A stretch of DNA of 64,000 nt from an uncultured Acidobacteriota bacterium (GTDB lineage: Bacteria > Acidobacteriota > Vicinamibacteria > Vicinamibacterales > 2-12-FULL-66-21), in the NCBI GenBank assembly GCA_963725325.1, contig CAVRYF010000014.1, forward strand, positions 810,390 to 874,389, given 5' to 3'. The notes under the pieces were generated by a model. That model made no database searches. It saw only the letters and a program-made list of their open reading frames with translations, and was not told the DNA's origin. This document shows, piece after piece, positions 9,106 to 57,906 of the stretch; the stretch's first letter is position 1, and each line of letters begins with the position of its first letter. A program made the position numbers and the translations under genes.

Positions 9106-9144
9106 CTCGCGGCCACTCGAGCGGATCCGACACCAGCAAGGCCA

Positions 9145-9171
9145 GGTCGGCACAGTCGCGAGCTGCCGACC
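9145..9171. terminator. Stem-loop between convergent genes (8-bp stem GGTCGGCA/TGCCGACC, 11-nt loop)
   Basis: The inverted repeat was read directly. It lies between the stop at 9105 (+) and the stop at 9180 (-). There is no U-tract. Confidence 0.4.
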
Positions 9172-9179
9172 GGCCGCGC

Positions 9180-12050: not shown

Positions 12051-12213
12051 GTCGTCGAAAATGCCGCGTCCAGGCGGAATATTTCGGCCGCTACCATGCG
12101 GCCTGGGCAGGCTAGCCAGGGCCGTTCAAACAATTACCAAGGCGGTCGATCGGCAAGGTTCGTGCGTGTACCTGACTCGCGGCGGTGTGACTTCGATTCC
12201 GAGGGGGCACGAT

Positions 12214-40816: not shown

Positions 40817-43800
40817 ATGCCTCGCAGCCTTGCAACAGCGGTCCGCCGATTTGTCAGCGCCACCTCGCGTGCGCGCGGCGAGTCGTATTTCACGAACGGC
40901 CGCGTCTCCGCCACGCGCGCGAATTCGACCACCTTCGCGGCCCTCGTGCGGGGCACACGTGCGTACAACGTCTCGCTGACGCTCGACGAGCATCGCCTCG
41001 TCGTCGACTGCTCCTGCCCGTACTTCGAGGACTCCATCAACGCGTGCAAGCACATCTGGGCCGTGATTCTCGCCGCCGATCGGGCGCACGCGTTTCAGGT
41101 GCCGGCCGAGCTTTTCCTCGACGTCCACGACGTCCGGATCGATGCCCTGTCGCCATCGCCCCTCACGCCGCCACCCCCAGCGCCACGTCCTGACTGGCAG
41201 GCCTTCCTGTCGCAGGTCACGCCTCCCCGGCCCGAAGGGCCTCCATTGCGGCTGCTCCTGCCAGGCGAGCTGATCTACGTTGTCGACCTCGTGCGTTCCG
41301 CGACGGCAGACGGGCTCCTGATCGAACTTCTCACGCGCGAGCGAAAGAAGTCCGGAGAATGGGGAAGGCCGAAGGCCGTGACCATCAATCGTCACGACAT
41401 CGCGACGCTGCCAGACCAGCGCGATCGGCAGATCCTCGACGCGGTCTGCGGCGCTACGCACGCGCATAGCTATTTCGGGCCGGCCTGGAGTGGGTACAGC
41501 GTAGGCATGCCCGTACCGGCCGCGTTCGTGCTGAACCTGACCCTGCAGCGGGATCTCGCGCGTCGGCTCGCCGAAACGAGCAGGCTGCTGTTGCGCCAGC
41601 CGGCGACCCCCGGAAGCTCGCACGGGAAGACCGTGCTCTCACCCATCGAGTGGGACCCGCAACCCGCGCAGTTCCAGCTGCGCATCACGGGCGATGCCAG
41701 TAGGGGCTATACCATCGGCGGCGAGGTTCACCGCGGAGACGAGGTGCATGCCGTCAGCGATGCGATGTTCGTGACCGGAGCGCTGATCCTGTGGCGTCCG
41801 GTCGAACCCGGCGACCCGCCTCGCCTGGCCGCATTCGACACGGGCGGTGCGGATCGGTGGATGGCCGGCCTCCTGGATGTCGGCTCCGTCACGGTGCCGG
41901 CATCGGACGCGGTGGCACTCGTTGAAACACTCGCGGTTTCCGATCTCGCGCGGCTCGAATGCCCCGAGGAACTGCGCGTCGACGCACGCGTCGAGCCTCC
42001 TCGCCCCGTCGTCCGCATCACGAGGCCAACCGCCGGTGACCCCCGGTGGTACGCATCGTCGGACCATCGACTCGAAGCGAAGTTGTCGTTCGCCTACGGC
42101 GAGTGTGAAGTGGATGCCTGGTCCGAGCAGCCGGTGTTCTTCGAGCCCGCGCGTCGGGTGGCCTGGCGGCGGGATCGGGAGGCGGAGCGTGCCGCATTCG
42201 CGCGGCTGCAGACACTCGGCGTTCGCCGACTCGCCGACTGGCAGAGCGGTGGGACCCGGCTGGACCTCGCCACGGCGCAGCTGGCGTCGGTCGTCCGGGC
42301 GCTGCTCTCGGAAGGCTGGCGCGTGGAGGCCGAAGGGCGGCTTTATCACCGGCCGGGTGTCGTGTCGCTGGACGTGCGGTCGGGCATCGACTGGTTCGAG
42401 CTGCACGGCAGTGTCGACTATGGCGGCGCGAGCGTCGATCTGCCTACGCTGCTCGCCGCGGTGCGGCGCGGCGACTCCTTCGTCCCCCTCGGCGACGGCA
42501 CGTTCGGCCTGCTCCCGGAGGACTGGCTGGCGCGCGCGGCACGCCTGACCGCTGTCGGCACGCCGGTCGCGGATCACGTGCGATTCTCGTCGTGTCAGGG
42601 GGCCCTGCTCGACGCGTGGCTCGCAACCCAGCCTGCGGTGTCCTTCGACGAGGCGTTCGCTCGCGCGCGCGCCGAGCTGGCGCGGTTCGAGGGCGTGGCG
42701 GCGATCGATCCACCGAAGACGTTCCGTGGCGTCCTGCGCGACTACCAGCGCGACGCGCTCGGGTGGTTCGATTTCCTGCGCCGCTTCGGATTTGGCGGGT
42801 GCCTCGCCGACGAGATGGGCCTCGGGAAGACCGTCATGGTGCTCGCGGCGATGGAGGCCCGTCGCGCGGAACGCGAGCGGGACCGTCGTCCAACCGTCCC
42901 ATCGCTCGTCGTCGTTCCGCGTTCGCTCGTATTCAACTGGCAGCAGGAGGCCGCGCGCTTCGCGCCCCGCTTGCGCGTGCTCGACTTCACGGGTGCCGGC
43001 CGCCGCGGCGCCCTCGACGCCATCGCGGAGCACGATATCGTCCTGACCACGTATGGAACGCTGCGGAGGGACGTCGGACTCCTCAAGGAAATCGCATTCG
43101 ATTACGCGATCCTCGACGAGGCGCAGACCATCAAGAACTCGCGGACCAGCTCGGCCAAGGCGGCGCGGCTCCTCAAGGCCACGCACCGGCTGGCGCTCAG
43201 CGGTACGCCAGTCGAGAACCACCTCGGAGAGCTCTGGAGCCTGTTCGACTTCTTGAATCCCGGCATGCTCGGCGCGGCGTCGGTCTTCGCGGCGGCGACC
43301 ACAGCCGATCCGAAGGCAAACGACGGGACGCTGGAGATGCTGGGCCGCGGGCTTCGGCCGTTCATCCTGCGGCGGACCAAGGAGATCGTGGCCGCCGAGC
43401 TGCCGGCCCGGACCGAGCAGACCTTGTACTGCGACCTCGAGCCCCCCCAGCGCGCGCTGTACGACGAGCTGCGTGACCACTATCGCGCGGCGCTCCTTGA
43501 GAAGAGCGCCCCGGTCGGGGCGCTTGGGGAGAAGAGCGCCCCGGTCGGGGCGCTTGGGGAGAAGAGCGCCCCGGTCGGGGCGCTTGGGGAGAAGAGCGCC
43601 CCGGTCGGGGCGCTTGGGGGGAAAAGCGCACCGCTCGGCCTCGGCCGGTCGAAGCTGCAGATCCTCGAGGCGCTGCTGCGCCTGCGTCAGGCGGCGTGTC
43701 ATCCCGGCCTCGTCGATCGCACGCGGGCTGTCGATCCGTCAGCGAAGCTCGACCTCCTCGTGCCGCGGCTGCAGGAACTCGTCGAGGACGGCCGCAAGGT

Positions 43801-44242
43801 GATCGTCTTCTCGCAGTTCACGACGCTGCTTGGTTTCCTGCGCACGCGGCTCGACGAAGCGCAGCTGACCTACGAGTATCTCGACGGAAAGACGAGGGAT
43901 CGAGAGGCGCGCGTCCGGCGGTTTCAGGGCGATGGATGTCCGCTGTTTCTCGTCAGCCTGAAGGCAGGCGGCCTCGGCCTCAATCTCACCGCCGCGGAGT
44001 ACGTCTTCCTGCTCGACCCCTGGTGGAACCCGGCCGTCGAGGCTCAGGCGATCGACCGCGCACACCGCATTGGGCAGACGCGGCCCGTATTCGCCTTCCG
44101 GCTCATCGCGCGCGATACCGTCGAGGAGAAGGTTCTCGAGTTGCAGGCTACGAAACGACAACTGGCCGAAGCTATCGTGCGCGCCGACGCCAGCCTGATC
44201 CGCAATCTACGGCGAGAGGATCTCGAGCTGTTGTTGTCGTGA
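40817..44242 (+). CDS. SWIM zinc-finger SNF2-family helicase/ATPase
   Basis: The SWIM motif is DCSCPYFEDSINACKHIW. SNF2 motif I is LADEMGLGKT and motif II is DEAQTIKN. The helicase C region is SLKAGGLGLNLTAAEYVFLLDPWWNPAVEAQAIDRAHRIGQ. Confidence 0.9.
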   Translation: MPRSLATAVRRFVSATSRARGESYFTNGRVSATRANSTTFAALVRGTRAYNVSLTLDEHRLVVDCSCPYFEDSINACKHIWAVILAADRAHAFQVPAELFLDVHDVRIDALSPSPLTPPPPAPRPDWQAFLSQVTPPRPEGPPLRLLLPGELIYVVDLVRSATADGLLIELLTRERKKSGEWGRPKAVTINRHDIATLPDQRDRQILDAVCGATHAHSYFGPAWSGYSVGMPVPAAFVLNLTLQRDLARRLAETSRLLLRQPATPGSSHGKTVLSPIEWDPQPAQFQLRITGDASRGYTIGGEVHRGDEVHAVSDAMFVTGALILWRPVEPGDPPRLAAFDTGGADRWMAGLLDVGSVTVPASDAVALVETLAVSDLARLECPEELRVDARVEPPRPVVRITRPTAGDPRWYASSDHRLEAKLSFAYGECEVDAWSEQPVFFEPARRVAWRRDREAERAAFARLQTLGVRRLADWQSGGTRLDLATAQLASVVRALLSEGWRVEAEGRLYHRPGVVSLDVRSGIDWFELHGSVDYGGASVDLPTLLAAVRRGDSFVPLGDGTFGLLPEDWLARAARLTAVGTPVADHVRFSSCQGALLDAWLATQPAVSFDEAFARARAELARFEGVAAIDPPKTFRGVLRDYQRDALGWFDFLRRFGFGGCLADEMGLGKTVMVLAAMEARRAERERDRRPTVPSLVVVPRSLVFNWQQEAARFAPRLRVLDFTGAGRRGALDAIAEHDIVLTTYGTLRRDVGLLKEIAFDYAILDEAQTIKNSRTSSAKAARLLKATHRLALSGTPVENHLGELWSLFDFLNPGMLGAASVFAAATTADPKANDGTLEMLGRGLRPFILRRTKEIVAAELPARTEQTLYCDLEPPQRALYDELRDHYRAALLEKSAPVGALGEKSAPVGALGEKSAPVGALGEKSAPVGALGGKSAPLGLGRSKLQILEALLRLRQAACHPGLVDRTRAVDPSAKLDLLVPRLQELVEDGRKVIVFSQFTTLLGFLRTRLDEAQLTYEYLDGKTRDREARVRRFQGDGCPLFLVSLKAGGLGLNLTAAEYVFLLDPWWNPAVEAQAIDRAHRIGQTRPVFAFRLIARDTVEEKVLELQATKRQLAEAIVRADASLIRNLRREDLELLLS
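43499..43648 (+). repeat. In-frame 30-bp tandem repeat, four perfect copies plus one degenerate copy, inside the SNF2 gene
   Basis: GAGAAGAGCGCCCCGGTCGGGGCGCTTGGG occurs 4 times (43499-43618), encoding (EKSAPVGALG)4. A diverged fifth unit GKSAPLGLGR follows. Confidence 0.95.
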
Positions 44243-45353: not shown

Positions 45354-45794
45354 TCACACCGCTGCTGGTTTGACCTCTGAGGTGCACGCGAGACAGCGCG
45401 TCGCCTTGAGCGGAATCTTCGACAGGCAGAACGGGCAGTCACGGGTGTCGACCACGACCGGCGCCGGTCCCTTGAGCCGGTTGACCTGCTTCACGAGCAG
45501 GAACACGGCAAACGCCACGATCAGGAACTCGAGGCAGGTGTTCAGAAACAGGCCGAAGTTGAGCGTGGGCGCGCCGGCTGCCTTGGCCTCCGCAAGCGAT
45601 GCATACGTCGCGCCGTTGAGGGCCACAAACAGGCTGCTGAAATCGACGCGGCCGAGGGCCATGCCGATCGGCGGCATGATGAGGTCGTTGACGACCGACG
45701 TCACGACCTTTCCGAACGCGGCGCCGATAATGACGCCGACTGCCAGATCGATGACGTTGCCCCGGGCGGCAAAGTCGCGAAATTCCTTGAACAT
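45354..45794 (-). CDS. mscL: Large-conductance mechanosensitive channel with C-terminal CxxC...CxxC tail
   Basis: The N-terminus [40 protein letters not shown] is diagnostic. The tail is [23 protein letters not shown]. Confidence 0.9.
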
Positions 45795-46023
45795 GGCTAC
45801 CCCTTGTTGACGGACGCCGATCGTGTCGCCGACCGGATATTACGTCGTCTTCACGGGCGGAAACCAGTCTCGACGGTCCGGCGCTCGGCGTTCGGCGCTC
45901 GGGAAGGCCCGAAACCTGAGCTCTGAGCCCCCGTCTTGAGCCTCTCCCAGTACGTATGCTAAGTTCATAGCACCTTTTGCCGACTTCATCCGTCTAAGGG
46001 TTGTGGACAACAGACAGACACTC

Positions 46024-46413
46024 ATGAAAACGCCGCCCCATCACGAGCTCAGCCGTAGAGAACGGCAGATCATCGATATCCTTTATACGCGCGGCCGCGG
46101 CACGGCCGCCGAGGTCCAGACAGCCCTGCCGGACCCCCCCAGCTACTCAGCCGTGCGCGCGATGCTGCGGATTCTCGAAGAAAAAGGCCATGTCCGGCAC
46201 GAGCAGGACGGGCCCCGATACGTTTACCTGCCGACCGTGGCGCGCGACAACGCCAAGCGGTCTGCCCTCCGCCACATGTTGCGGACCTTCTTCGACGGCT
46301 CGGCGGAACAGGCCATCTCGGCGCTGCTCGACGACTCCTCGACCAAGATGTCTGACATCGAACTGGACCGCCTGGCCAGGATGATCAGTGACGCCCGCAG
46401 GACCGGAGCCTAG
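46024..46413 (+). CDS. BlaI/MecI/CopY-family winged-helix transcriptional repressor
   Basis: LSRRERQIIDILY...TAAEVQ...SYSAVRAMLRILEEKGHV.HEQDGPRYVY.P is typical of the family. An alternative GTG start is at 46003. Confidence 0.85.
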   Translation: MKTPPHHELSRRERQIIDILYTRGRGTAAEVQTALPDPPSYSAVRAMLRILEEKGHVRHEQDGPRYVYLPTVARDNAKRSALRHMLRTFFDGSAEQAISALLDDSSTKMSDIELDRLARMISDARRTGA

Positions 46414-46415
46414 CC

Positions 46416-48812
46416 ATGAATGTAGTCGCTGAAATGAACGCGTTCGTGAACGGACTCGACGGCCTCTGGCTGCCAGCCGTCGACGCCCTGATCAAGGTCA
46501 CGCTCGTCCTCGGCGTCGCGGGTGCCGCGGCGCTTGTGCTCGGTCGCGCGTCGGCCGCGCTGCGCCATCTGGTGTGGACGCTGGCGCTCACGAGCGCGCT
46601 GGTGCTTCCGGCCCTCTCCATCGCGCTTCCCCGTTGGCAGTTGCCGATCGTCACGCTGACGAGCGAGGCTGCGCCGGCAGCAGCCGAGGCCATGGCGACC
46701 GCCCCGTCACTGTCCCGCCGCACGCGGACGTCTGACGCCGTCGTCATCACGAAAGGCGATGCCTCGGCCGCAATCGCCCCGTCAACGCCAGCGGCAGCCG
46801 TGCCTCCCGTCGTCCGCGTCACGCCCCGCATTTCTCTGACGATGGCGCTCGTGGCGATCTGGGCGGCCGGGGTTCTCGCCGTCGTCGGCCGTCTCGTGGT
46901 CGGCATCATCGCCGTCCAGTGGATGTCGCGGCGAACCGTGCGTGTCGTCGACGCCCCGTGGCTGCCGCTCGCGCTGGAGCTGGCCTCCAGCCTCGGCATC
47001 ACGCGGCGACTGGTGTTCCTCGAGAGCGCCCGCGCGACCATGCCGATGGCGGCGGGCGTCTTCACGCCGTCGGTGCTGATGCCGGAGGATGCGAACTACT
47101 GGCCGCTCGAGCGGCTGCGCATTGTCCTCCTGCACGAGCTCGCGCACGTGAAGCGCCGCGACTGCCTGACGCACGTCATCGCGCAGCTCGCCTGCGCGCT
47201 GCACTGGTTCAACCCGCTCGCCTGGATTGCCGCGCGGCACATCAGGACCGAGCGCGAACGGGCGTGTGACGATCTGGTCCTCGCCTGCGGAACGCGGGGA
47301 CCGGACTACGCGGAGGAGCTGCTCGAGATCGCGCGTGTCATGCGCGGCGGCCGTTGCCCCGCTCTCCTCGCCGGCGCAACGCTCGCCATGGCCCATCGTT
47401 CGCAGCTCGAGGGACGTCTCATCGCGATTCTCGATCCGAAGGTGCCGCGCTCGAGTGTGTCGCCGGTCAGGGCGGCGCTCGTGGCGGCAGCAGTGGCGTG
47501 TGCGCTGCCACCCCTCGCGGCGATGCAGCCCTGGGCGGTCACCACCGTCGAGGCGACGGCAGCCGTCCCGTCCAGCGTCCTGCCCGCCGACGCAGAGACG
47601 CGCGCGCCGCAGGTCATGGCTGCTCCAACGCCGCAGCCGCAACCTCGTCCCGCGCCGTCACCGCGTCCCGAGGCCGCGTCGTCATTCGGATCGGAGATCG
47701 CTCAGACCGTGGCGGACTCGGTCCGCGACAGCGCCACGCAGGTAATGGTTCAAGGCGCCGTGCAGGGCGCCGTGCAGCAAGGTGTCCAGTCGGCGGTGCA
47801 GGGCGCTGTTCAGGGCGCACTACACGGCATCGACGTGGGAGCCATCGAGCAGGATGCGAAGCGTGCGTCCGCCGATCCCCGGATGGTCGCGGCACTGACG
47901 GCCGCGCTCAAGGACTCCGACAAGGATGTCCGCGAGACCGCCATGCATGCGCTCGTGCAGCTGCGCGATCCGTCGATCTTCGAGCCGCTCGTGCAGGCCC
48001 TGAAGGATCCGTCGCCCGACGTCCGTGAGCAGGCCGCGCATGGTCTCTCGCAGCTTCGTGACAAGCGGGCGGTAGAGCCGCTGATGGGCGCGCTGAAAGA
48101 TTCGAACGCCGACGTTCGTGAAAGCGTCATCCACGCGCTCAGCCAGCTGCGCGATCCGCGGGCAGTCGACGGGCTCATCGGCGCGCTCAAGGACGAGAAT
48201 CCGAGCGTGCGCGAGCAGGCGGCGTTCGCGCTCGGCCAGCTGCGCGATGCCCGCGCCGTCGATCCCTTGATCGCGGCGCTGAAGGACTCGAACAACGACG
48301 TCCGCCAGCAGGCGGCGTTTGCGCTCGGGCAGTTGCGCGACAAACGGGCTGCCAGCGCGCTTGCGGGCCTGATCAAGGATACCGACGCGGACGTCCGTCA
48401 GCAGGCCGTGTTCGCGCTCGGTCAGCTGCGCGACGGGTCGGCCGTGGACGGTCTCGTCCTCGCGCTGCGCGACGCGAAGCCCGACGTCCGCGAACAGGCG
48501 GCGTTCGCGCTCGGCCAGATCCGTGACGCGCGCGCTGTGCCGGCCCTGATCTCGTCGCTCAAGGACGAGGCGCCGGATGTGCGCCAACAGGCAGCCTTCG
48601 CCCTCGGCCAGATTCGCGATCGCGGAGCGGTCGAAGCGCTCGTCATCGCCATCAAGGATCCATCGGCCGACGTGCGGGAACAGGTCGCGTTCGCGCTCGG
48701 GCAGATTCGCGATCCCCGGGCCATCGACGCGCTCACGGGAGCGCTGAAAGACACCAGCGCGGACGTGCGGCAGCAGGCAGCGTTCGCAATCGGTCAGCTC
48801 GCTCGGCAATAA
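46416..48812 (+). CDS. BlaR1/MecR1-like M56 membrane metalloprotease fused to a C-terminal 10-unit HEAT-repeat domain
   Basis: It starts 2 nt after the BlaI-like stop. It has three N-terminal TM helices, the zinc motif LLHELAHVKRRD, a fourth TM (VRAALVAAAVACALPPLAA), a Pro-rich linker, a (GAVQ)n stretch and ten 31-aa HEAT units. Confidence 0.85.
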   Translation: MNVVAEMNAFVNGLDGLWLPAVDALIKVTLVLGVAGAAALVLGRASAALRHLVWTLALTSALVLPALSIALPRWQLPIVTLTSEAAPAAAEAMATAPSLSRRTRTSDAVVITKGDASAAIAPSTPAAAVPPVVRVTPRISLTMALVAIWAAGVLAVVGRLVVGIIAVQWMSRRTVRVVDAPWLPLALELASSLGITRRLVFLESARATMPMAAGVFTPSVLMPEDANYWPLERLRIVLLHELAHVKRRDCLTHVIAQLACALHWFNPLAWIAARHIRTERERACDDLVLACGTRGPDYAEELLEIARVMRGGRCPALLAGATLAMAHRSQLEGRLIAILDPKVPRSSVSPVRAALVAAAVACALPPLAAMQPWAVTTVEATAAVPSSVLPADAETRAPQVMAAPTPQPQPRPAPSPRPEAASSFGSEIAQTVADSVRDSATQVMVQGAVQGAVQQGVQSAVQGAVQGALHGIDVGAIEQDAKRASADPRMVAALTAALKDSDKDVRETAMHALVQLRDPSIFEPLVQALKDPSPDVREQAAHGLSQLRDKRAVEPLMGALKDSNADVRESVIHALSQLRDPRAVDGLIGALKDENPSVREQAAFALGQLRDARAVDPLIAALKDSNNDVRQQAAFALGQLRDKRAASALAGLIKDTDADVRQQAVFALGQLRDGSAVDGLVLALRDAKPDVREQAAFALGQIRDARAVPALISSLKDEAPDVRQQAAFALGQIRDRGAVEALVIAIKDPSADVREQVAFALGQIRDPRAIDALTGALKDTSADVRQQAAFAIGQLARQ
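47874..48809 (+). repeat. Coding tandem array of ten 93-bp (31-aa) HEAT/PBS-lyase-type repeats
   Basis: The unit consensus, read from the translation, is D.RAV..LI.ALKD...DVRQQAAFALGQLR. The first unit begins with the GAT at 47874. Confidence 0.9.
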
Positions 48813-48836
48813 CCTTCAAGCAGGAGTCGCACATCA

Positions 48837-48855
48837 GTGCCGGCCTCGCCGGCAC
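48837..48855 (+). terminator. Stem-loop GTGCCGGC-CTC-GCCGGCAC after the BlaR1-HEAT gene (possible extension 48821-48864)
   Basis: The perfect 8-bp inverted repeat was read directly. Outer CAGGAGT/ACTCCTG could extend the stem. There is no adjacent U-tract. Confidence 0.35.
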
Positions 48856-48903
48856 GCACTCCTGCGAGCGTCAGTGCTAGTTTTCTAGCAGAAGAGAGGG
48901 GTC

Positions 48904-50664
48904 ATGAGTCCGATTGCCGTCTTCTTTCGCACGCTCAGCCGGTCGAGTGCCATCTGCCTCGGCATCGGCCTCGTCATCGTCAACCCACCGTTCGACTGGT
49001 CGCCTGGCAAGGCGATGACGGGCCAAGCGGTGTTGACGGGAGTCACCGCGCAGAAGAGCCCGAACGAGGCGGCCATCGATGGGTTGATTGGCGCCCTCAA
49101 GGACAGCGACGCCGGCGTCCGCCGCCAGGCCGCGCTGGCACTTGGCGAGTTGCGCAGCCCGAGAGCCGTGCCCGGTTTGATCGAAGCACTCAAGGATTCG
49201 CAGACCGATGTCCGGTTGCACGCGATCATGGCGCTCGGCGAGCTCGAGGACGTGCGGGCGACGCCGGCTCTCGCACAGGCGCTCAAAGATGCCGAACCGA
49301 AAGTCCGCGCCAGGGCCGCCGCTGCCCTCGCCGAGCTTCGTGATCGCGGCGCTGTCGACGCGCTCATCGCCGCGGTCAAGGACAGCAACGTCGACGTGCG
49401 GAAGCAGGCGCTCATGGCCCTGGCGGAGATCCGCGACGAGAGCGCCCTCACAGCCATCACTGCGGCGCTCAAGGACGAGGACGCGAGTGTGCGCCGGGCG
49501 GCAGCCATGGCGTTGGCGGAGCTGAGCGGCGGCGGCTCACATGATGGAGCGCATCCCAACCCGCATCCTCATCCGCATCCACATCCGCGCCCGAACCCGA
49601 ATCCAGAATCCCAATCCCAATCCCAACCCGCGGCCGGGCGGAGTCCACTGATCATGCCGCGCTGCTCTCTCGTCCTGTGTGCCCTGCTGACGACGGTTCC
49701 CTCCGGCGGAGGCGGGCGCTTGATAGCCGCGGTGGATCGGCCGGCAATCCAGTCCGTGCACGACGCGCGGCCGGCACGCGAGCTCATCACGGAGCTCGGC
49801 GCCTCGGATGCAGCCGTGCGCACACGCGCCGCGTGCGGGCTTCGGGAGCTCGGCGACCGCGCGGTCGACGCCATCGGCCCGCTCGTCAAGCAGCTGGCGG
49901 ACGGCGCGCCGGTCGACGGCACGCTCTGCGGCCGGCGGTGGTCGCGCAACGGCGAAGAGAACCTGACGAGCCCCGGCGAGGAAGCGGCGGCGACGCTCGT
50001 GGCCATCGGCACCCGCGCCTTCGAGCCTGTTCTCACGGCGCTGCGCCAGGACGCGTGGATCGCACGACGCAACGCCGCGTGGGCGCTCGGCGCCCTCGAC
50101 GACAATCGCGCGGTCGCGGCGCTCAGCGAAGCATTGCGCGATCGCGAGGCACCCGTGCGCGAGCAGGCCGCGTGGGCCCTTGGAGCGATCGACGACACCG
50201 CCGCCGTACCCGCTCTCGTTGCGGCGCTAGACGATCAGGATCCGCGGGTCCGGCGTCAGGCCGCGTGGGCCCTCGGCGCGATCGACGATTCACGGGCCGT
50301 CGCGGGACTCAGCAAGGCCCTGAACGATGTCGACGAGAAGACGAGGAGCCAGGCAGCCTGGGCCCTTGGTGCGATTGACGACCGTGCGGCGGTGCAGGCG
50401 CTGGCGCGCGCGCTCGGCGACAAGGCCTCGAGTGTTCGCAAGCAGGCCGCATGGGCCCTCGGCGCGATCGACGACTCCGGAGCCGTCGAACCGCTGGTGC
50501 GCGTGCTCACTGATGAGAGCCCGGAGGTCAGGGAGCAGGCGGCATGGGCTCTCGGTGCCATCGGCGATTCCCGCGCGGTGCCGGGCCTGCTCGTTGCCCT
50601 CAAGGACAACAGCGTCGGCGTCCGACGTCAGGCCGCTTGGGCGATCGGGGCGATTGGCCGCTGA
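48904..50664 (+). CDS. HEAT-repeat protein with two repeat blocks separated by a low-complexity linker and a hydrophobic segment
   Basis: GAGAGGGG lies upstream of the ATG. The N-terminal hydrophobic segment is AICLGIGLVIV. There are five HEAT units (49063-49527), a linker HPNPHPHPHPHPRPNPNPESQSQSQP (49552-49629), a hydrophobic segment CSLVLCALLTTV, then about seven HEAT units (to 50661). Confidence 0.8.
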   Translation: MSPIAVFFRTLSRSSAICLGIGLVIVNPPFDWSPGKAMTGQAVLTGVTAQKSPNEAAIDGLIGALKDSDAGVRRQAALALGELRSPRAVPGLIEALKDSQTDVRLHAIMALGELEDVRATPALAQALKDAEPKVRARAAAALAELRDRGAVDALIAAVKDSNVDVRKQALMALAEIRDESALTAITAALKDEDASVRRAAAMALAELSGGGSHDGAHPNPHPHPHPHPRPNPNPESQSQSQPAAGRSPLIMPRCSLVLCALLTTVPSGGGGRLIAAVDRPAIQSVHDARPARELITELGASDAAVRTRAACGLRELGDRAVDAIGPLVKQLADGAPVDGTLCGRRWSRNGEENLTSPGEEAAATLVAIGTRAFEPVLTALRQDAWIARRNAAWALGALDDNRAVAALSEALRDREAPVREQAAWALGAIDDTAAVPALVAALDDQDPRVRRQAAWALGAIDDSRAVAGLSKALNDVDEKTRSQAAWALGAIDDRAAVQALARALGDKASSVRKQAAWALGAIDDSGAVEPLVRVLTDESPEVREQAAWALGAIGDSRAVPGLLVALKDNSVGVRRQAAWAIGAIGR

Positions 50665-50823
50665 CACAGGCGGCCGTGCCGGGCTGCATTGAATTGATTC
50701 CGGCTGCACGATCGGCAGCGCCTGCGGCCCGAGCGCGGCGCGTCGTCGCCGCGCGAGAGCGAGCGGGGGTGGGGCCCCGCGAGCATTGAGAATGCAGACA
50801 GAGTGCCCCAAGGAGCACCGTTC

Positions 50824-53235
50824 ATGATGTCTGCGCTTCAGGACCTTCGACTCGGTACCCGCCTCCTCGTCCGATCTCCGGGCTTCAGCCTCGTCGCGGT
50901 CGTCGCGCTCGCGGTTGGTATTGGGGCGAATACCGCGATCTTCAGCGTCATCAATACGCTCCTCCTGCAGCGCCTGCCGTATCCCGACGCCGATCGCCTG
51001 GCGATCGTCTGGGAGCACAACACGGTGCGCGATCGGAAGAGCAACGTCGTCGGGCCCGCCAACTTCATCCACTGGCGCGAGATGAATCAGGTCTTCGAGG
51101 ATCTTGCCGCCGCGACCATCACCTACAGCGTGACGCTCGGCGGCGACGGCGAACCGGAGGAACTGCAGGCGCAGTCGATCTCGGCGGAGCTCTTCCAGGT
51201 CCTTGGTGTGCCGCCGGCGCTCGGCCGCGGTTTCACGGCTGCTGAGAACGTCCCCGGCACCACCAGTGTCGTCATCAGTGATCGGCTGTGGAGGCGCAGG
51301 TTCGGTGCCAGTCCGACCATTCTCGAACGGCCGATCGTTTCGCAAGCGACGCCGTACACCGTGGTCGGCGTCATGCCGCCGCGCTTTTCGTTCCTCGACA
51401 AGACCGTGGATGTGTGGCTGCCAATTGGATTCACGGCCCAGTCACGCACGCCTCGCGGGCGCTCGCTCGTGGTTGTCGGCCGTCTCAAGCCGGGAGTAAC
51501 GGCCGAACGCGCCCAGCTGGACATGACGCGCGTCTCCGCCAACCTGACGCAGATGTTTCCCGAGTTCAACACGGGCTGGAGCTCCCGCGTCGTGCCACTG
51601 CGCGAGCAGCTGACCGGCGACGTCCGCCCCGCACTCATCGTGCTCGCCGCCGCTGTGGCGTTTGTTCTCCTGATCGCCTGCGCCAACGTCGCCAACCTCC
51701 TCCTGGCTCGGGCGACGGCGCGTCACCGCGAGCTTGCGGTTCGCGCCGCGCTTGGCGCCGGTCGGGCGCGGCTCGTCCGTCAGTTGCTGGCGGAGAGCCT
51801 CGTGCTTTCTGGCATCGGTGGTCTGTGCGGTCTTCTGCTCGCCTGGTGGGCACTTGGATTCCTTCGCGCCGTTGTTGCCGAACGGCTGCCCATCCAGCGC
51901 CTCGAGATGGTCACAATCGACTTCACCGTGCTCCTGTTCACGCTCGGCGCGTCACTGGTGTGCGGCCTCGTCTTCGGCATCGTTCCAGCTTTGACGGCCT
52001 CGGGCACGAGCCTCACGGATTCGCTGAAGGAAGGCGGGCGCACGGGATCGGCATCGCGCGGGAACCGGACGCGCGGCGCCTTTGTGATCGTCGAAGTGGC
52101 CCTTGCGCTGGTGCTCCTCGTTGGCGCGGGTCTCCTCGTGCGCAGCTTCGCGCGCCTGCTGGAGCAAAGCCCCGGATTCGATCCTTCGCGAACGGTGACG
52201 ATGCGCATTTCGCTGCCTCAGGCGCGCTATGGCGGCCAAGGCCAGCGGGCGCAGTTCCTGGCTCGCCTGTTCCAGCAGGTGGACGCGCTCCCAGGTGTTG
52301 AAGCCTCGGGCGCCATCAGTTTCCTTCCTCTCACCGGTCTCGCCGCCGCGACGTCGATGGAGATCGTGGGCAAGCCCACGCCTGCACGGGGGCAGGAGCC
52401 CGTCACCGACGTCCGCGTGATCACGCATGACTATCTGAAGACGATGGGAGTTCCACTCCTCAAGGGACGGCTCTTCAGCGAGCCGGATGCCTCGGATGCC
52501 AAGGGGCGCGTCATCGTGAACGAGACCATGGCGCTCAGGCACTGGCCTGGCGAGGATCCGATCGGCAAGCACGTCCGCATCTCCTGGGACAACCAGGAAG
52601 ACGAGGTCATCGGCGTAGTTGGCGACGTCAGACACCACGGGCTTGATGTCGAGAGCCGGGCGATGACCTATTGGCCGTACGCGCGGAATCCCTATGGCAC
52701 GATGACCGTCACGGTGCGAGCCACGGGCGATGCCAGCCGGATCGCCACGTCCATCGTTGCGCTCGTTCGCCAGCTCGATCCCGACATGGCCGTCGCCAGC
52801 ATCAAGACGATGGACGAGGTGGTGTCCAATTCGGTCGCGGAGCGCCGCCTCACGATGCTGCTGCTCACGTGCTTCGCCGGCGCGGCGCTTCTCCTCGCCG
52901 CCGTCGGCATCTACGGCGTGATCGCGTATGGCGTCACCGAGCGGACGCAGGAAATCGGCATCCGGATGGCGCTCGGTGCCCAGCGTGGCGACGTGCTGCG
53001 CATGGTGGTGAGGCAGGCGCTCCTGCTCGCCGTGGCCGGCATCGTCATCGGCGGCGCGGGGGCGCTGGTGCTGACACGGCTGATGGAAGGACTGCTGTTC
53101 CAGGTGAAGCCCTGGGACCCGGTGACGTTTGCCGTGGTCAGCGGGGTCCTGGCGGCCGTGGCGCTCCTTGCGAGCTACATCCCGGGCCGACGGGCCACGC
53201 GAGTCGACCCGGTGATTGCGCTCAGGGGTGAGTGA
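50824..53235 (+). CDS. Duplicated MacB/FtsX-type ABC permease without adjacent ATPase (ADOP-type orphan permease)
   Basis: The N-terminus is LQDLRLGTRLLVRSPGFSLVAVVALAVGIGANTAIFSVIN. There are two MacB-like halves, each with a large periplasmic domain and FtsX helices. The C-terminus is ...RTQEIGIRMALGAQRGDVLRMV. Confidence 0.85.
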   Translation: MMSALQDLRLGTRLLVRSPGFSLVAVVALAVGIGANTAIFSVINTLLLQRLPYPDADRLAIVWEHNTVRDRKSNVVGPANFIHWREMNQVFEDLAAATITYSVTLGGDGEPEELQAQSISAELFQVLGVPPALGRGFTAAENVPGTTSVVISDRLWRRRFGASPTILERPIVSQATPYTVVGVMPPRFSFLDKTVDVWLPIGFTAQSRTPRGRSLVVVGRLKPGVTAERAQLDMTRVSANLTQMFPEFNTGWSSRVVPLREQLTGDVRPALIVLAAAVAFVLLIACANVANLLLARATARHRELAVRAALGAGRARLVRQLLAESLVLSGIGGLCGLLLAWWALGFLRAVVAERLPIQRLEMVTIDFTVLLFTLGASLVCGLVFGIVPALTASGTSLTDSLKEGGRTGSASRGNRTRGAFVIVEVALALVLLVGAGLLVRSFARLLEQSPGFDPSRTVTMRISLPQARYGGQGQRAQFLARLFQQVDALPGVEASGAISFLPLTGLAAATSMEIVGKPTPARGQEPVTDVRVITHDYLKTMGVPLLKGRLFSEPDASDAKGRVIVNETMALRHWPGEDPIGKHVRISWDNQEDEVIGVVGDVRHHGLDVESRAMTYWPYARNPYGTMTVTVRATGDASRIATSIVALVRQLDPDMAVASIKTMDEVVSNSVAERRLTMLLLTCFAGAALLLAAVGIYGVIAYGVTERTQEIGIRMALGAQRGDVLRMVVRQALLLAVAGIVIGGAGALVLTRLMEGLLFQVKPWDPVTFAVVSGVLAAVALLASYIPGRRATRVDPVIALRGE

Positions 53236-53371: not shown

Positions 53372-54682
53372 ATGCTGCTGGCGTCAGGGATCATCACCCT
53401 GCTGATCCTGCTGACGGCGCTGTTCGTGGCGGCCGAGTTCGCCGTCGTGGGCGCGCGCCGGAGCCGGTTGCGACGGCTGGCCGAGGACGGCAACGCGCTC
53501 GCTGCCCGGGTGCTGCCCGTCCTCGAAGACCCGCACGCGCTCGACCGGTACATCGCTGCGTCGCAGGTCGGCATCACCCTTTCCAGCCTGATCCTCGGAG
53601 CCTACGCGCAGGCGTCGATCGCGCCGCGGGTTGCTCCCTTCATCCAGCGTCTCGGAGGACTGGAAGCCGAAACCGCCCAATCCACCTCAGCGGTCATCGT
53701 CCTGCTCATCCTGACGACGCTGGCGATGATTGTCGGAGAGCTCGTGCCGAAGTCCATCGCGCTGCAGGACCCCACCCGAACCGCGATGTGGACGGTCATC
53801 CCGATGCAGTGGTCCCAGCGCGCGTTTTCGTGGTCGATCGATTTCCTGAACGGCAGCGGCAACCTGCTGCTGAAGCTGATGCGCGTCAAGAACACCGGGC
53901 ATCGGCACGTGCACTCGCCCGACGAGATCGAGCTGCTCATCGCCGAGAGCCGCGACGGAGGGCTGCTCGAGCCGCAGGAGCAGGTCAGGCTGCATCAGGC
54001 GCTCAGGCTCGGTCTACGGACTGCGCGCGAGCTGATGGTCCCGCGGGCGCGCCTGGCATCGGTCGACGTGTCGACGCCCTTCGCGGATGTCCTCAGGCTG
54101 GTCGCCACCAGTCCCTACAGCCGGCTGCCCGTCTATCGCGCGTCGCCCGACGACATCATCGGCATCCTGCACACCAAGGATGTCGTCACCGGCTTCATCA
54201 ACGAGCGCGCCCAGACGTCCCTGATGTCGCTGCTGCGGCCGCTCGCCCGCGTGCACGGCAGCATCCCGGCCGACCATCTCCTGGCCTACATGCGCGACAA
54301 GCGCATCCACCAGGTGCTCGTGGTTGGCGAAGGCGGGCAGATCGAGGGGCTGATCACACTCGAGGACGTCGTCGCCGAGCTCATCGGCGGCGTGTCCGAC
54401 GAGTTCAAGGGCGCACCCGCGCGCGCCATTCTCCTGCCCGACGGCAGCGTGCGGCTTCCCGGAGCCATGCGCGTGGATCAAGCGGCGCAGGTGCTCGGCG
54501 CCGATTGGAAGGGTCCGGGTGACACGGTGGGCACGTTCGTTCCGCGCGTGCTTGGCGGCGTTCCAGCCCCCGGCGAGCAGGTCACGATCAGGGGCGTCGA
54601 CCTGGTGATCGAGGCGGTCGAGGATGACGTGGTGTCGTCGGCGGTCGTCCTTCCGCCTTCGACGAAGGACGCCCCGGAATGA
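53372..54682 (+). CDS. CNNM/CorC-HlyC family protein (DUF21 TM domain - CBS pair - CorC_HlyC)
   Basis: The N-terminus is LLTALFVAAEFAVVGARRSRL. It also has VGELVPKSIAL, a CBS pair (...MVPRARL..., ...HQVLVVGEGG...EGLITLEDV) and a C-terminal transporter-associated domain. Confidence 0.85.
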   Translation: MLLASGIITLLILLTALFVAAEFAVVGARRSRLRRLAEDGNALAARVLPVLEDPHALDRYIAASQVGITLSSLILGAYAQASIAPRVAPFIQRLGGLEAETAQSTSAVIVLLILTTLAMIVGELVPKSIALQDPTRTAMWTVIPMQWSQRAFSWSIDFLNGSGNLLLKLMRVKNTGHRHVHSPDEIELLIAESRDGGLLEPQEQVRLHQALRLGLRTARELMVPRARLASVDVSTPFADVLRLVATSPYSRLPVYRASPDDIIGILHTKDVVTGFINERAQTSLMSLLRPLARVHGSIPADHLLAYMRDKRIHQVLVVGEGGQIEGLITLEDVVAELIGGVSDEFKGAPARAILLPDGSVRLPGAMRVDQAAQVLGADWKGPGDTVGTFVPRVLGGVPAPGEQVTIRGVDLVIEAVEDDVVSSAVVLPPSTKDAPE

Positions 54683-55968
54683 CGGCCTTCCTGATCATCA
54701 CCGGACTCATCCTGCTCAACGGTATCTTCGTTGCGGCGGAGTTCGCGATCGTGGGTGCACCTCGCGCCTCGATCGACGCGCGCGCGGCCCGCGGCAACCG
54801 GCTGGCCGCGGCCGTACAGGCCGTGCTGCGCGACCCGAGGCGTCAGGATCGGTACATCGCGACAGCCCAACTGGGCATTACCGTCGCAAGCCTCGGCCTC
54901 GGCATGTATGGCGAGCACGTCCTGGCCGATGCGATCTACTACCGCATCGACAACGCTGGCGCGCCCGCATGGCTCGTCTCGCACGGCCTCGCGAGCGTCG
55001 TCGCGATCGCGATCCTCACCTACTTTCACATCGTCATCGGCGAGATGATTCCGAAGTCCCTCGCGCTTCAGCAGGCCGAAACCATGGCGCTCTGGATCAC
55101 GCCGCCGATGTTGTGGACGAAGACTCTCGTCTTCCCGCTCGTCGTGGGGCTCAACGAGATCGGCAACGTCCTGTTGAGATTCCTCGGCGTCAACCGGCAG
55201 GTGCAAAGTGTCGAGCAGTACTACACGCCGGAGGAGCTGCAGCTCGTCGTCCAGGAAAGTGAGGAGCGTGGGGCGATCCGCACGGAGTCCGGTCAGATGC
55301 TGCAGGTGCTGTTCGAATTCGCCACCCTGACTGCCGCGGAAGTCATGGTGCCCCGCGTGCGGATCACCGGACTGCCGCTCGGCAGCACGCCCGACCGCAT
55401 CCGCGAGCTGCTGGGACGCACGCCGCATACGCGCTACCCGGTGATCGAGCACGACCTCGATCACATCGTCGGCATGATTCACATCAAAGACCTGCTGAGG
55501 CTGTTGCTGCGGAACGAACCTATCGGTCAGCCCCACGCACGACCGCTGCCCCTCGTGCCCGAGACCGCGCCAATCGACACCGTGCTCGCTACCATGAGGC
55601 GCGAACACACGCAGATGGTGGTGGTCCTCGACGAGCACGGCGGCACCGCCGGCATCGTCACGCTCGAGGATCTCTTCGAGGAAGTGGTCGGCGACATCGA
55701 CGCTGGCCCGGGATCGCCAGCGCAGGCGTATCGTGACCGCGACGGCCGTCTCCGCGTCCCCGGAACGATGCGGCTCGACGAGCTCGGGCGCGAGTTCGAC
55801 CTCGACCTCGAACACGAGGAGGTCGACAGCGTGAGCGGCCTCGTCCTGGCGCTCCTCGGCCGCCCGCCACAAGTCGGCGATTCGGTGCGCTACGACCGGC
55901 TGCAGCTCGAGGTCACGGCGGTGAAGGGGCGCGGGGTCGAAGAATGTGCCGTGTGCCTGGCCGCGTGA
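54679..55968 (+). CDS. CNNM/CorC-HlyC family protein, paralogue of the preceding gene
   Basis: It has the same architecture (NGIFVAAEFAIVGAPR..., IGEMIPKSLAL, a CBS pair, HTQMVVVLDEHGGTAGIVTLEDL). An ATGA overlap joins it to the upstream gene. Confidence 0.85.
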   Translation: MTAFLIITGLILLNGIFVAAEFAIVGAPRASIDARAARGNRLAAAVQAVLRDPRRQDRYIATAQLGITVASLGLGMYGEHVLADAIYYRIDNAGAPAWLVSHGLASVVAIAILTYFHIVIGEMIPKSLALQQAETMALWITPPMLWTKTLVFPLVVGLNEIGNVLLRFLGVNRQVQSVEQYYTPEELQLVVQESEERGAIRTESGQMLQVLFEFATLTAAEVMVPRVRITGLPLGSTPDRIRELLGRTPHTRYPVIEHDLDHIVGMIHIKDLLRLLLRNEPIGQPHARPLPLVPETAPIDTVLATMRREHTQMVVVLDEHGGTAGIVTLEDLFEEVVGDIDAGPGSPAQAYRDRDGRLRVPGTMRLDELGREFDLDLEHEEVDSVSGLVLALLGRPPQVGDSVRYDRLQLEVTAVKGRGVEECAVCLAA

Positions 55969-55986: not shown

Positions 55987-57906
55987 CTATCCCACGTGAA
56001 TGCGCGGCCGCTTGAGCGGGTTCGACTCGTTCTGCCTCAGCACCTCGCGCGTCACGGGCGCCGTGTCGCCCTCGCCGAGCGCCAGGAACTTCATCAGGTA
56101 GACAATCGGGTTGCCTTCGGTCCACCCGAAATACGCGTGCGGGATTTGTCCGGTCTCGTCGCGGAGGTAGAGGAGCAGCGCCGCGATGGCGTTGGGAATG
56201 GCCGAACTGACGCAGCGCAGGACGTGATGCCGGCCGACTTCGACACCCTCGACGTGCAGGCGTCCGCTGAACTCCGAAACATCCCCAGGACGCACCTCGA
56301 GGAAGAGCACCCGTTCGTCCTTCGTCAGGTGATGAGAGTCGCTGGCCTCGCGGAGCTTGTGCTCGTACTCCTCGGGCTGCCCGGTATCGGGACGATTGGC
56401 GATGATCCGGATGGGACCACCTCCGGCATCGTGCATGAATCGCCGGGCGGTCTCGTCTGGCTCCACTGACTGCACCCGCAGCTCAGTCGACCTGAGAACG
56501 CGCGAGATGAGCGACGTCACGATGATCGTGACGATGAACCATGACGCGATCTTGACGCCGTCGGGCCGTTCGATGATGTTGACGATGGTCGTGTAGAGGA
56601 AGACGACCGTGATCGCGCTGAACGCCAGCCAGAGGCGCCGCTGGGCGCGGACCGAGAGCGTCACCGCGACGGCCGCCGAGGTCATCAGGACCAGCACGCC
56701 GGTCGCATACGCGCCGCCCTGCGCTTCGACGTCGGCGTCAAAGATGATCGTGATGATGAAGGTGATGACCGTGAAGAGCACGACCAGCGGCCGTGACGCC
56801 CGCGCCCACTCCGGCGCCATGCCGTAGCGCGGCAGATAGCGGGGCACCAGGTTCAGGAGCCCGGCCATCGCCGAGGCGCCCGCAAACCACAGGATGGAGA
56901 TCGTACTCAGGTCGTAGACCGTACCGAATACCTCGCCGAGGTGTTCGTGGGCGAGAAACGCGAGGGCTCGGCCCCACGCCCGGCCGCCCTCCTCGAATTC
57001 ATGCGGTGGAATGAGCAGCGTCGTGATGAACGAGCTGCCCATGAGCAGCACCGTCATGATGAGCGCCGCGGTGGCCAGCAGCTTCTTCGCGTTCCGGATG
57101 CGGCCCGCTGGCCGCGCCGGATCGTCGCCGGGATCGCCCTGGACGAGCGGCATCACCGCGACGCCGGTTTCGAAGCCCGACAAGCCAAGCGCCAGCTTCG
57201 GGAAGACAATCAGGGCGGCGGCCAGCATCATCACCGGGTTGCCGTGGGCCTGCATCAGCCCATCGCGCCATCGCGGGAGGTACTCTGGATGATGGGCGAT
57301 TTCGAGGACGCCCCAGACGATGACCACCACATTGAGCGCCAGATAGATCGCCACGATGAAGACCGCGAGGCCGATCGCTTCCCGGAAGCCTTTCAGGAAG
57401 ACCGCCGACAGCATCGTCAGCAGGACGAGCGTGAGGCCGATCGGATGATTCGTCCACGTCGGCACGAACGGATTGCCCACGATGTGCGCGGTCGCGTCGG
57501 CTGCCGACAATGTGATGGTGATGACGTAGTCGGTCGCCGCGAACCCGAGCAGACAGAGGACGAACACCTTGCCGCGCCACCTGGGCAGCAACTCCTCGAG
57601 CATCGAGATGCTGCCCTGCCCATGGGGACTGTTCTCGGCCACGCGCCGGTAGATCGGCAACGCGCCAAAAAGCGTCAGAAGGATGAGGACCAGCGTCGCA
57701 ATCGGGGACAGCGCACCGGCGGCGAGGAACGCGATGCCGGGCTGATAGCCGAGGGTCGAAAAATAGTCGACGCCGGTGAGGCACATGACCTTCCACCACG
57801 CATCCTGGTGGACGTGCTGTGCGTGTGGTCCGGCCGGCTCGCGAAGCCCTTCGAGAAACCACCGATTGAACCGGCGCCGCCGCCTGGCAGAGAGTCCAAA
57901 TGGCAT
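55987..57906 (-). CDS. APC-superfamily-like transporter with C-terminal cytoplasmic domain
   Basis: It has about 12 helices. The N-terminus is [29 protein letters not shown] soluble tail of about 180 aa follows. The family assignment is from general resemblance only. Confidence 0.55.

Follow-up and report, generated by a model that had tools for sequence, protein, structure and literature searches.

A BlaI/M56 regulatory module with a predicted periplasmic HEAT-repeat sensor, free HEAT proteins and a linked ADOP permease in Acidobacteriota

What does a BlaR1-like membrane protease respond to when a solenoid of HEAT repeats stands in the place of its beta-lactam sensor, and which genes would such a protein control? 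The question is raised by a 64,000-nucleotide stretch of DNA (the window) from an uncultured Acidobacteriota bacterium of the Vicinamibacterales (GenBank assembly GCA_963725325.1, contig CAVRYF010000014.1, positions 810,390 to 874,389), which carries four co-directional open reading frames (ORFs) on its + strand between positions 46024 and 53235. An original prediction, made from the sequence alone, described them as a BlaI-like repressor, an M56 protease with a HEAT sensor, a second HEAT protein and a duplicated FtsX/MacB permease. The ORF list and the sequence confirm the four coordinates as well as the 2-nt gap between the first two genes, and profile searches for M56, HEAT, MacB_PCD and FtsX matched all four protein families as described. 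The same gene arrangement occurs in dozens of genomes, which makes chance an implausible explanation of the layout. The locus is probably a BlaI/BlaR1-type switch based on regulated proteolysis, with a HEAT sensor for a signal other than beta-lactams; for any particular ligand our confidence is far lower than for this overall scheme.

The first gene (46024-46413, + strand) encodes a winged-helix repressor of the BlaI/MecI/CopY family. The protein of 129 aa matches PF03965 (Penicillinase_R) with 92.4 bits (cut-off 22.6), its residues 9-122 aligning to positions 1-114 of the 115 in the profile. An alternative GTG start at 46003 would extend it to 136 aa; its homologues are 125-133 aa long. It remains under the NCBIfam cut-offs for BlaI proper (NF012168, 30.9 vs 180) and for CopY (TIGR02698, 45.3 vs 121.95), and as a query against the PDB sequences it retrieved nothing at E <= 0.001. 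Its TAG stop codon (46411-46413) is separated from the ATG of the M56 gene (46416) by the dinucleotide CC only, and translational coupling of the two genes is strongly indicated.

The second gene encodes a protein of 798 aa whose N-terminal part is an M56 metalloprotease module (46416-47546, + strand), delimited by PF05569, by alignment to BlaR1 (8EXP/8EXS), by invariant residues, by hydropathy and charge, and by an AlphaFold2 (AF2) model built on 55 homologues with a mean predicted local distance difference test (pLDDT) score of 79.8. The match to PF05569 (Peptidase_M56) reaches 103.8 bits (cut-off 31) over residues 24-338. Both hydropathy and the model place three transmembrane (TM) helices ahead of the HELAH zinc motif (TM1, ~21-44; TM2, 47-70; TM3, 141-168, with the loop EL1 at 72-138) and one behind it (TM4, 350-369). 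HELAH (residues 240-244, 47133-47147) and an ExxxD motif (47256-47270) belong to a gluzincin domain which, by prediction only, lies between TM3 and TM4 and faces the cytoplasm. In a phmmer alignment residues 232-303 correspond to residues 193-266 of Staphylococcus aureus BlaR1 (PDB 8EXP/8EXS), and H240, E241, H244, E281, D285, D249 and Y298 fall on BlaR1 H201, E202, H205, E242, D246, D210 and Y261, i.e., on the zinc ligands and supporting residues as defined by cryo-electron microscopy (PMC9834060). All seven are intact and invariant in the alignment of the 55 homologues, and no catalytic residue has been lost. The BlaR1 profile NF000326 (blaR1_generic) matches residues 140-291 only, with 96 bits against a cut-off of 400, and a Pfam scan of the protein detected no transpeptidase-like (penicillin-binding) domain. 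The position of the BlaR1 sensor domain, after TM4, is occupied by the solenoid (hydropathy, AF2), as the original prediction had it.

On which side of the membrane does this solenoid lie? Lysines and arginines number 0 in the N-terminus, 2 in the TM1-TM2 loop, 3 after TM3, 3 before TM4 and 1 after TM4, where the single basic residue compares with three acidic ones. This distribution follows the positive-inside rule for a four-TM layout with both termini outside, as in BlaR1. In the AF2 model a strand behind TM2 (74-78) pairs with a strand behind TM4 (370-374), which puts the two segments on the same side of the membrane. Moreover, the free HEAT proteins encoded in these loci have a hydrophobic anchor or a signal sequence at the N-terminus, and exactly two conserved cysteines occur in one class of them. 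Because of the charge bias, the homology to BlaR1 and these exported paralogues with their Cys pair, the periplasm is the best reading of where the HEAT domain resides. The alternative is a cytoplasmic HEAT domain with a cytoplasmic partner, brought about by an inverted topology or by an extra membrane pass of the GxxxG segment in the linker. Most characterised HEAT proteins are cytoplasmic, and the (GAVQ)n stretch of the linker does show a glycine-zipper-like pattern, but this stretch stays under the hydropathy threshold for TM helices, the linkers are Pro-rich and the three arguments just given all favour a C-terminus outside; we consider such an arrangement extremely unlikely. The statement that the outside of the cytoplasmic membrane is an unusual place for HEAT repeats holds only against textbook examples, since exported HEAT proteins are routine in these loci.

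The solenoid is connected to TM4 by a Pro-rich linker (residues 378-487, 47547-47876, + strand) that is modelled as disordered over residues 378-482, with pLDDT below 50. Within it lie the (GAVQ)n / GxxxG stretch (~47745-47840) and the perfect 12-bp duplication GGCGCCGTGCAG, both noticed before, the latter located by Tandem Repeats Finder at 47754-47777 along with a 93-bp period over 48134-48799. A G-x3-G-x3-G-x3-G pattern, represented here by (GAVQ)n, is conserved in the periplasmic linker of Vicinamibacterales M56-HEAT proteins and missing in the Gemmatimonadota homologue of locus L062; its role may be in helix packing or in oligomerisation (BlaR1 forms a dimer).

Behind the linker follow ten PBS-type HEAT units of 31 aa (residues 488-798 plus stop codon, 47877-48812, + strand), recognised by HEAT_2, HEAT_PBS, AF2, Foldseek and a unit table. 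The C-terminal 310 residues score 229 bits with HEAT_2 and 141 bits with HEAT_PBS, in addition to a strong HEAT_EZ match, and the model contains 20 helices at residues 488-797, i.e., the ten units originally counted, at a pLDDT of about 85-98, mostly >90. The evidence for an M56 gluzincin with four TM helices and an intact active site, bearing a ten-unit solenoid in the periplasm on a disordered linker of ~100 aa, is strong. Pairwise identity between the units is 41-77 %, with the consensus RAV.aL..ALKD...DVReQAAFALGQLRD. Foldseek searches of the PDB mostly retrieved HEAT and alphaRep structures, with designed HEAT proteins of the alphaRep type at the top (42-48 % identity), and were uninformative on the M56 part. 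The equivalog cut-offs for phycobilin lyases (CpcE/F, NblB) are not reached (117 vs 330, 70 vs 220, 105 vs 300), and the similarity to these enzymes is at the level of the repeat only.

A clue to the ligand may come from the concave face of the solenoid. In alphaRep proteins this face harbours the variable target-binding positions 18, 19, 22, 23, 26 and 30 (PMC3754942). The equivalents of positions 22/23/26/30 hardly vary between units: the sensor has E/Q-Q-F-Q, and HEAT-B, a free HEAT protein described below, has x-Q-W-A. The counterpart of alphaRep position 26, which belongs to the concave face (PMC3754942), comes directly behind the invariant Ala-Ala of helix 2. Over all loci this place is taken by F/W/H in 88 % of the acidobacterial sensor units and by W/F (W/Y/H in non-acidobacterial sensors) in 58-68 % of the units of the other three classes. 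An aromatic/amide ladder common to the sensor and its free paralogue is suggestive of one shared ligand with a repeating or extended structure. Because the units are nearly identical, a periodic or extended polymer such as a glycan strand or an unfolded or extended peptide would be more likely than a small molecule; the same near identity, together with the aromatic ladder, suits a periodic ligand no less than the originally suggested contact between two HEAT proteins. The net charge of the solenoids (pI 5.1-5.8) gives no hint to the ligand.

The architecture is common. A search with the M56 half alone returned 1572 relatives, and scanning species-representative genomes yielded 570 or more loci with related M56 genes. 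Of the 120 best among the 1572 relatives, about half have HEAT Pfam domains and a length of ~650-690 aa and stem from Vicinamibacterales metagenome-assembled genomes (MAGs), the source of the closest relatives of the M56-HEAT protein. Their names are generic, either 'M56 family metallopeptidase' or, from JGI, 'HEAT repeat protein/beta-lactamase regulating signal transducer'. Of the at least 570 loci, the best 80 mostly carry the M56-HEAT fusion, which is found in Vicinamibacteria, Terriglobia, Blastocatellia, Marinacidobacterales, many Gemmatimonadota and a few otherwise-labelled MAGs. The HEAT spans of the orthologues are equivalent to roughly 5-16 units; the array varies in length, and ten units is the state found in the window. 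In Gemmatimonadota the module comprises BlaI, M56-HEAT and HEAT-B only, the genes after it being unrelated.

Such variation in unit number is expected of a ruler or tether and, together with the near identity of the units, would suit a HEAT solenoid that is a passive spacer or scaffold, sensing being left to the TM/EL1 region of the M56 protein or to the permease in the manner of Bce-type 'flux sensing'. FtsX-type permeases are known co-sensors in Bce modules. However, the predicted surface positions are held as an aromatic/Gln ladder and do not drift, and the Gemmatimonadota modules, which retain the M56-HEAT/HEAT-B pair without any permease of the ADOP family, contradict a structural solenoid combined with sensing by ADOP. 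A purely passive solenoid appears quite improbable.

If the solenoid is a sensor, which genes accompany it? The partners were counted in 60 loci that contain an M56-HEAT ORF followed by 1.5 kb or more of sequence. A free HEAT gene lies within 4 kb downstream on the same strand in 43 of them and upstream in four more; among six related M56 loci without HEAT there is none. All but one of the 43 downstream genes encode a Cys pair, with a spacing of 31 in Acidobacteriota and 54-66 in Gemmatimonadota. As judged from gene order, BlaI, M56-HEAT and a free HEAT protein that carries a Cys pair form the core of the module across the two phyla. The expected synteny holds across many genomes; the link to ADOP is missing in Gemmatimonadota.

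In the window the free HEAT protein appears in an altered form. The ORF of 586 aa at 48904-50664 scores 266 bits with HEAT_2, and its units are arranged in two blocks (Pfam, AF2), as had been seen; the single 'second HEAT protein' of the original prediction turns out to combine two ancestral genes that are fused in this clade. The first part, HEAT-A (48904-49653, + strand), was delimited by its conserved start and N-terminus, by AF2 and by its occurrence as a separate gene in L004, L007 and L008, where HEAT-A and HEAT-B are two proteins. It comprises the N-terminus MSPIAVFFRTL, a hydrophobic anchor (residues 13-27), five units (57-211) and a His/Pro/Asn-rich tail, the start and the N-terminus being conserved, together with a Shine-Dalgarno sequence, in six loci. 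The second part, HEAT-B (49654-50664, + strand), stands alone in most relatives, as a gene that encodes a signal peptide of its own. It begins with an internal ATG (49654) that follows a GGAG (49640), and comprises the signal-like MPRCSLVLCALLTTV and about nine units with an AAWALG motif, as well as the conserved Cys pair C311/C342 (49834, 49927). In the window, in L001 and in L002 the HEAT-A tail is read in a different frame, by which the HEAT-A stop codon is lost; the alternative frame would read NPNPNPNPRPGGVH and stop at 49649-49651. A sequencing frameshift was considered as the origin of the long ORF and rejected, because L001 and L002, which come from other assemblies, have the same shifted tail. 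On comparison with these relatives the 586-aa ORF is a lineage-specific fusion of two ancestral exported genes, and since the internal GGAG and ATG are kept, HEAT-B may still be produced as a separate protein.

Two further observations concern the ends of these proteins. The predicted cytoplasmic N-terminal tail of HEAT-A, MSPIAVFFRTLxxSSA (48904-48945; L001-L007), is conserved far beyond the need of a plain signal anchor, which hints at a specific interaction at the cytoplasmic or membrane side. In L062 (Gemmatimonadales) the M56-HEAT protein (8932-11037) and the free HEAT protein (11077-12543) end in similar Trp/Pro-rich tails, GPWPWPWPEPRPDP and GPWPMPEPRPRPFP, that parallel the Pro/Asn-rich HEAT-A tail of Vicinamibacterales.

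The conserved pairing of sensor and free HEAT protein is also what recommends the main rival explanation, in which HEAT-B is no effector but an inhibitor of the sensor. Much as CpxP acts on CpxA, HEAT-B would bind to the HEAT domain of the M56 protein and so hold the protease off, its titration or degradation being the signal and its induction the reset. The free HEAT protein is the sole partner conserved across two phyla, the Gemmatimonadota operon holds nothing else, HEAT-B is under the same putative operator as the sensor (see below), and alphaRep-type solenoids are able to bind each other by their concave faces (PMC3754942). On the other hand, this mechanism has to accommodate the thirteen M56-HEAT loci that lack a nearby free HEAT gene, and it leaves the co-inheritance of one ADOP lineage unexplained. 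We regard it as unlikely.

How might the switch reach its targets? Alignment of the regions upstream of blaI in relatives revealed a 16-bp palindrome, TGCTA-N6-TAGCA. It occurs in the window as TGCTAAGTTCATAGCA (45957-45972), 51 nt 5' of the ATG of the blaI-like gene, and as TGCTAGTTTTCTAGCA (48875-48890), 14 nt 5' of the ATG of the HEAT gene; we refer to these sites as putative operators 1 and 2. They are the only two matches in the window, both exact and one before each transcription unit, where 0.28 would be expected in 64 kb allowing one mismatch. In a survey of 86 related loci (1.39 Mb) with shuffled sequence as a control, 70 exact copies were counted versus 0.4 in the shuffles; 44 of them lie <=150 nt upstream of blaI, often paired with an offset of 19 nt, and 12 just past the M56 stop codon. 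Seen by locus, the palindrome is present <=150 nt upstream of blaI in 45 out of 73, and 17 related loci have it at the position of operator 2. Loci in which it precedes blaI come from Acidobacteriota, Gemmatimonadota, Planctomycetota and Rhodothermales. HEAT-B has moved upstream of blaI in four loci of Vicinamibacteria (L029, L075, L081 and L087), where it has a palindrome pair of its own. That the motif moves with the genes through rearrangement is good evidence of a regulatory site, and because it recurs at both positions across phyla, the palindrome is likely the operator of the repressor, an assignment that draws on dyad symmetry and position. An extended -10 element (TGnTAnnnT) can be read within the palindrome, though this is conjectural.

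Operator 2 is preceded by a GC-rich hairpin (48820-48865, + strand) that lacks a U-tract and follows the M56-HEAT stop codon. The 97-nt region with this hairpin folds at -43.2 kcal/mol (z = -3.98), and analogous hairpins are present in L004 and L007; it may be an attenuator or a 3'-end stabiliser.

The fourth ORF (50824-53235, + strand; TIGR03434, Pfam, TM scan) encodes a duplicated MacB/FtsX-type permease of the ADOP family. It matches TIGR03434 with 981.7 bits (cut-off 622.3) over positions 2-803 of 803, contains two MacB_PCD and two FtsX domains (Pfam), and has ~8 TM helices (TM scan) with two periplasmic core domains. With the MacB equivalog it scores 131 vs 966, in the C-terminal half only. 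Its ATG at 50824, preceded by AAGGAG, coincides with position 2 of the ADOP model; with this start the gap to the HEAT ORF, which is 139-159 nt, comes to the 159 nt given originally. None of the ORFs of the whole 64-kb window combines a Walker A motif with LSGGQ, which bears out the description of a permease with no ATPase gene nearby. To our knowledge, neither a function nor a partner ATPase has been assigned to the ADOP family.

Is this permease a target of the switch or merely a neighbour? Of 33 acidobacterial loci, 22 have a co-directional ADOP gene downstream, as against 4 with one within 8 kb upstream, and in several relatives the gap between HEAT-B and ADOP shrinks to 7-23 nt. The linked ADOPs score 600-1150 bits to that of the window, including those from Terriglobia (L033), Solibacteraceae (L065) and Marinacidobacterales (L015), in which the M56 halves are only 36-40 % identical, whereas ADOP paralogues of these loci that are unlinked or on the opposite strand reach 200-465 bits. 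These scores indicate that one ADOP lineage has travelled with the module. By sequence comparison the ADOP link is specific to Acidobacteriota and concerns one orthologous lineage, and the proposal that the permease is a regulated output finds support both in this co-inheritance and in the second putative operator before the HEAT-ADOP genes.

Alternatively, the adjacency of ADOP, and of the flanking mscL and CNNM genes, might reflect inherited gene order only, the switch controlling itself and the HEAT genes. ADOP genes form a large paralogous family in Acidobacteriota (TIGR03434 family description), so that chance adjacency is not negligible; mscL and CNNM are conserved within Vicinamibacterales only, and the window itself has its 139-159-nt gap before ADOP. 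Yet the association with ADOP is directional and strand-specific, one orthologous lineage is retained across classes, and the gaps in relatives are short; inherited gene order as the sole explanation is unlikely. The spacer between HEAT-B and ADOP is an insertion hot spot: it is filled with tandem GGTTCA(N) hexamers or heptamers in the closest relatives, L001 (12328-12432), L002 (12063-12148) and L013 (13364-13434) and long inverted repeats in L017 and L026, the spacer sequence of the window being unrelated. The window has an inverted repeat GCATT-GAG-AATGC at 50785-50797, ~27 nt 5' of the ADOP start, and a related TGCATTGAATTGA at ~50686. These small inverted repeats might be a separate regulatory site of ADOP, and they are not conserved in the relatives inspected.

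The regulated-proteolysis switch that we favour would work as follows. A periplasmic ligand would bind the concave face of the sensor solenoid, which displays a repeated Glu/Gln-Gln-Phe-Gln pattern. In BlaR1, ligand binding displaces EL1 from the sensor domain and the movement reaches the protease through TM3 (PMC9834060); a similar relay from EL1 via TM3 to the protease is envisaged here. The activated M56 protease would then cleave the BlaI-like repressor and derepress both promoters. Operator 1, before blaI/M56-HEAT, would confer autoregulation, derepression raising both sensor and repressor, and derepression at operator 2 would raise HEAT-A/HEAT-B and ADOP as one transcription unit. Induced free HEAT-B, with the same kind of aromatic ladder (Trp), would sequester the same ligand in the periplasm or hand it over, and in Acidobacteriota a dedicated permease, the ADOP, would expel or process it, thus closing a negative feedback loop; this MacB-type mechanotransmission permease would draw on an ATPase encoded elsewhere. 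The proposal that HEAT-B and ADOP act on the ligand of the sensor resembles by analogy the logic of bla/mec, where beta-lactams are ligands of sensor domain and induced proteins alike.

A number of observations weigh against this scheme. Thirteen of the 60 M56-HEAT loci have no free HEAT gene within ~9 kb, and the Gemmatimonadota loci examined have no ADOP. The 139-159-nt gap in the window could hold a promoter of ADOP's own. Uniform repeats could equally fit a structural spacer without specific ligand, and in the AF2 model neither EL1 nor the linker is confidently docked on the solenoid. A scan of the region for promoters and terminators found no canonical sigma-70 promoter, besides no terminator between the genes. 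Operator 2 is only 14 nt from the start codon, which bears on promoter geometry, and has a strong hairpin just upstream. Finally, related loci share descent, and the counts of loci given here are not counts of independent events.

A bolder version of the scheme takes the three HEAT solenoids and ADOP as a hitherto undescribed periplasmic recognition-and-clearance pathway for a periodic envelope or foreign polymer (glycan strands, extended peptide). The aromatic-ladder receptor would read the polymer and induce a secreted paralogous solenoid for its capture and an orphan MacB-type permease for its removal. This extension is speculative and on balance doubtful. If true, the ADOP family would for the first time have a function and a logic of induction, and a class of ligand would be defined, likewise for the first time, for a non-beta-lactam BlaR sensor of diderm soil bacteria.

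As to the surroundings, mscL (45354-45794, - strand; PF01741) is the divergent neighbour of the module and two tandem CNNM/CBS/CorC_HlyC genes (53372-55968, + strand; Pfam) lie downstream. Synteny comparison shows both to be kept as neighbours within Vicinamibacterales only, and their membership of the module is uncertain; L005 adds an MscS-type channel gene (5543-6889). These genes of turgor and ion homeostasis may or may not have a functional connection with the module. Further downstream, a multi-pass membrane protein of 639 aa (55987-57906, - strand) has no Pfam match at E <= 1e-5. The SNF2/SWIM helicase gene at 40817-44242 contains a 30-bp tandem repeat (43499-43638, 4.7 copies, 96 % identity) that encodes (E/G)KSAPVGALG iterations in the SNF2-related helicase region (Pfam residues 643-964). 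An Rfam scan of the window matched no RNA family, and PADLOC matched no system-specific defence model, only generic similarity to HEAT repeats and FtsX TM segments being noted.

The literature searched contains no paper on M56-HEAT proteins or periplasmic HEAT sensors and no characterised example, in keeping with the original statement. The architecture itself is already visible to automatic annotation, uncharacterised, and alone would not surprise a specialist; the comparison adds to it by predicting an operator, defining a conserved partner and linking an ADOP lineage to the module. According to a 2026 preprint on Clostridioides difficile CenIR, there are ~15,000 M56 proteins in 254 architectures, only ~6 % with a beta-lactam domain and ~96 % encoded close to a BlaI gene; the nine architectures that have at least 100 entries in that survey do not include HEAT. 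Non-beta-lactam BlaR-like proteins are by now seen as the large majority of the family, and the signal is known for almost none of them. The M56-HEAT variant is abundant in two major soil phyla and lends itself to experiments: its sensor domain is folded and soluble and could serve as bait, a paralogue that shares this surface is secreted, and with the predicted operator of 16 bp the regulon can be predicted and reporters can be built. As the module also ties one ADOP lineage to a specific regulator, it could give a first handle both on non-beta-lactam BlaR signals and on the function of ADOP permeases.

How does the module compare with known systems? As in BlaR1/BlaI and MecR1/MecI of S. aureus and Bacillus licheniformis, the gene of a winged-helix repressor stands beside that of a sensor. 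The sensor shares with BlaR1/MecR1 a four-TM M56 gluzincin with HExxH...ExxxD towards the cytoplasm and an extracytoplasmic sensor domain after TM4 (predicted here), and the system shares with bla/mec a palindromic operator and autoregulation (putative here) and a sensor domain whose fold recurs in an induced extracytoplasmic protein. Unlike BlaR1, the sensor domain is a PBS-HEAT solenoid on a disordered linker and not a class-D-beta-lactamase-like acyl-enzyme domain, and the protein scores far under the NCBIfam BlaR1 cut-off (96 vs 400). The bla/mec operators are of the TACA/TGTA type; here the putative operator is TGCTA-N6-TAGCA, and the outputs would be HEAT proteins and an ADOP permease.

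Parallels are also found among M56/BlaI pairs that do not sense beta-lactams, such as Rv1845c/Rv1846c of Mycobacterium tuberculosis, BlaIR of M. abscessus, PvmSR of Pseudomonas aeruginosa and CenIR of C. difficile. The sensor domain of these atypical BlaIR systems is absent or short and disordered, in contrast to the large folded repeat domain described here. Fusions of M56 to TonB_C, the second most common M56 architecture, likewise have an M56 membrane module that is joined by a Pro-rich linker in the periplasm to a periplasmic domain for protein interaction, but the C-terminal HEAT solenoid has no similarity to TonB_C; a TonB-dependent receptor is not consistently linked to the module, being adjacent in L004 only. 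The permease resembles other ADOP (TIGR03434) and MacB-type (type VII ABC) permeases in its two MacB_PCD + FtsX halves and the lack of an adjacent ATPase. ADOP genes are usually described beside PadR-type regulators (NCBIfam/TIGRFAM family descriptions), whereas one ADOP lineage here travels with a BlaI/M56-HEAT module. Finally, the solenoids share with CpcE/F, NblB, Mth187 and the alphaRep binders the 31-aa two-helix unit in which helix-2 positions form the binding face. Unlike PBS-lyase HEAT proteins and alphaRep, they are predicted to be exported and membrane-tethered, and the face positions that usually vary are kept near constant from one unit to the next.

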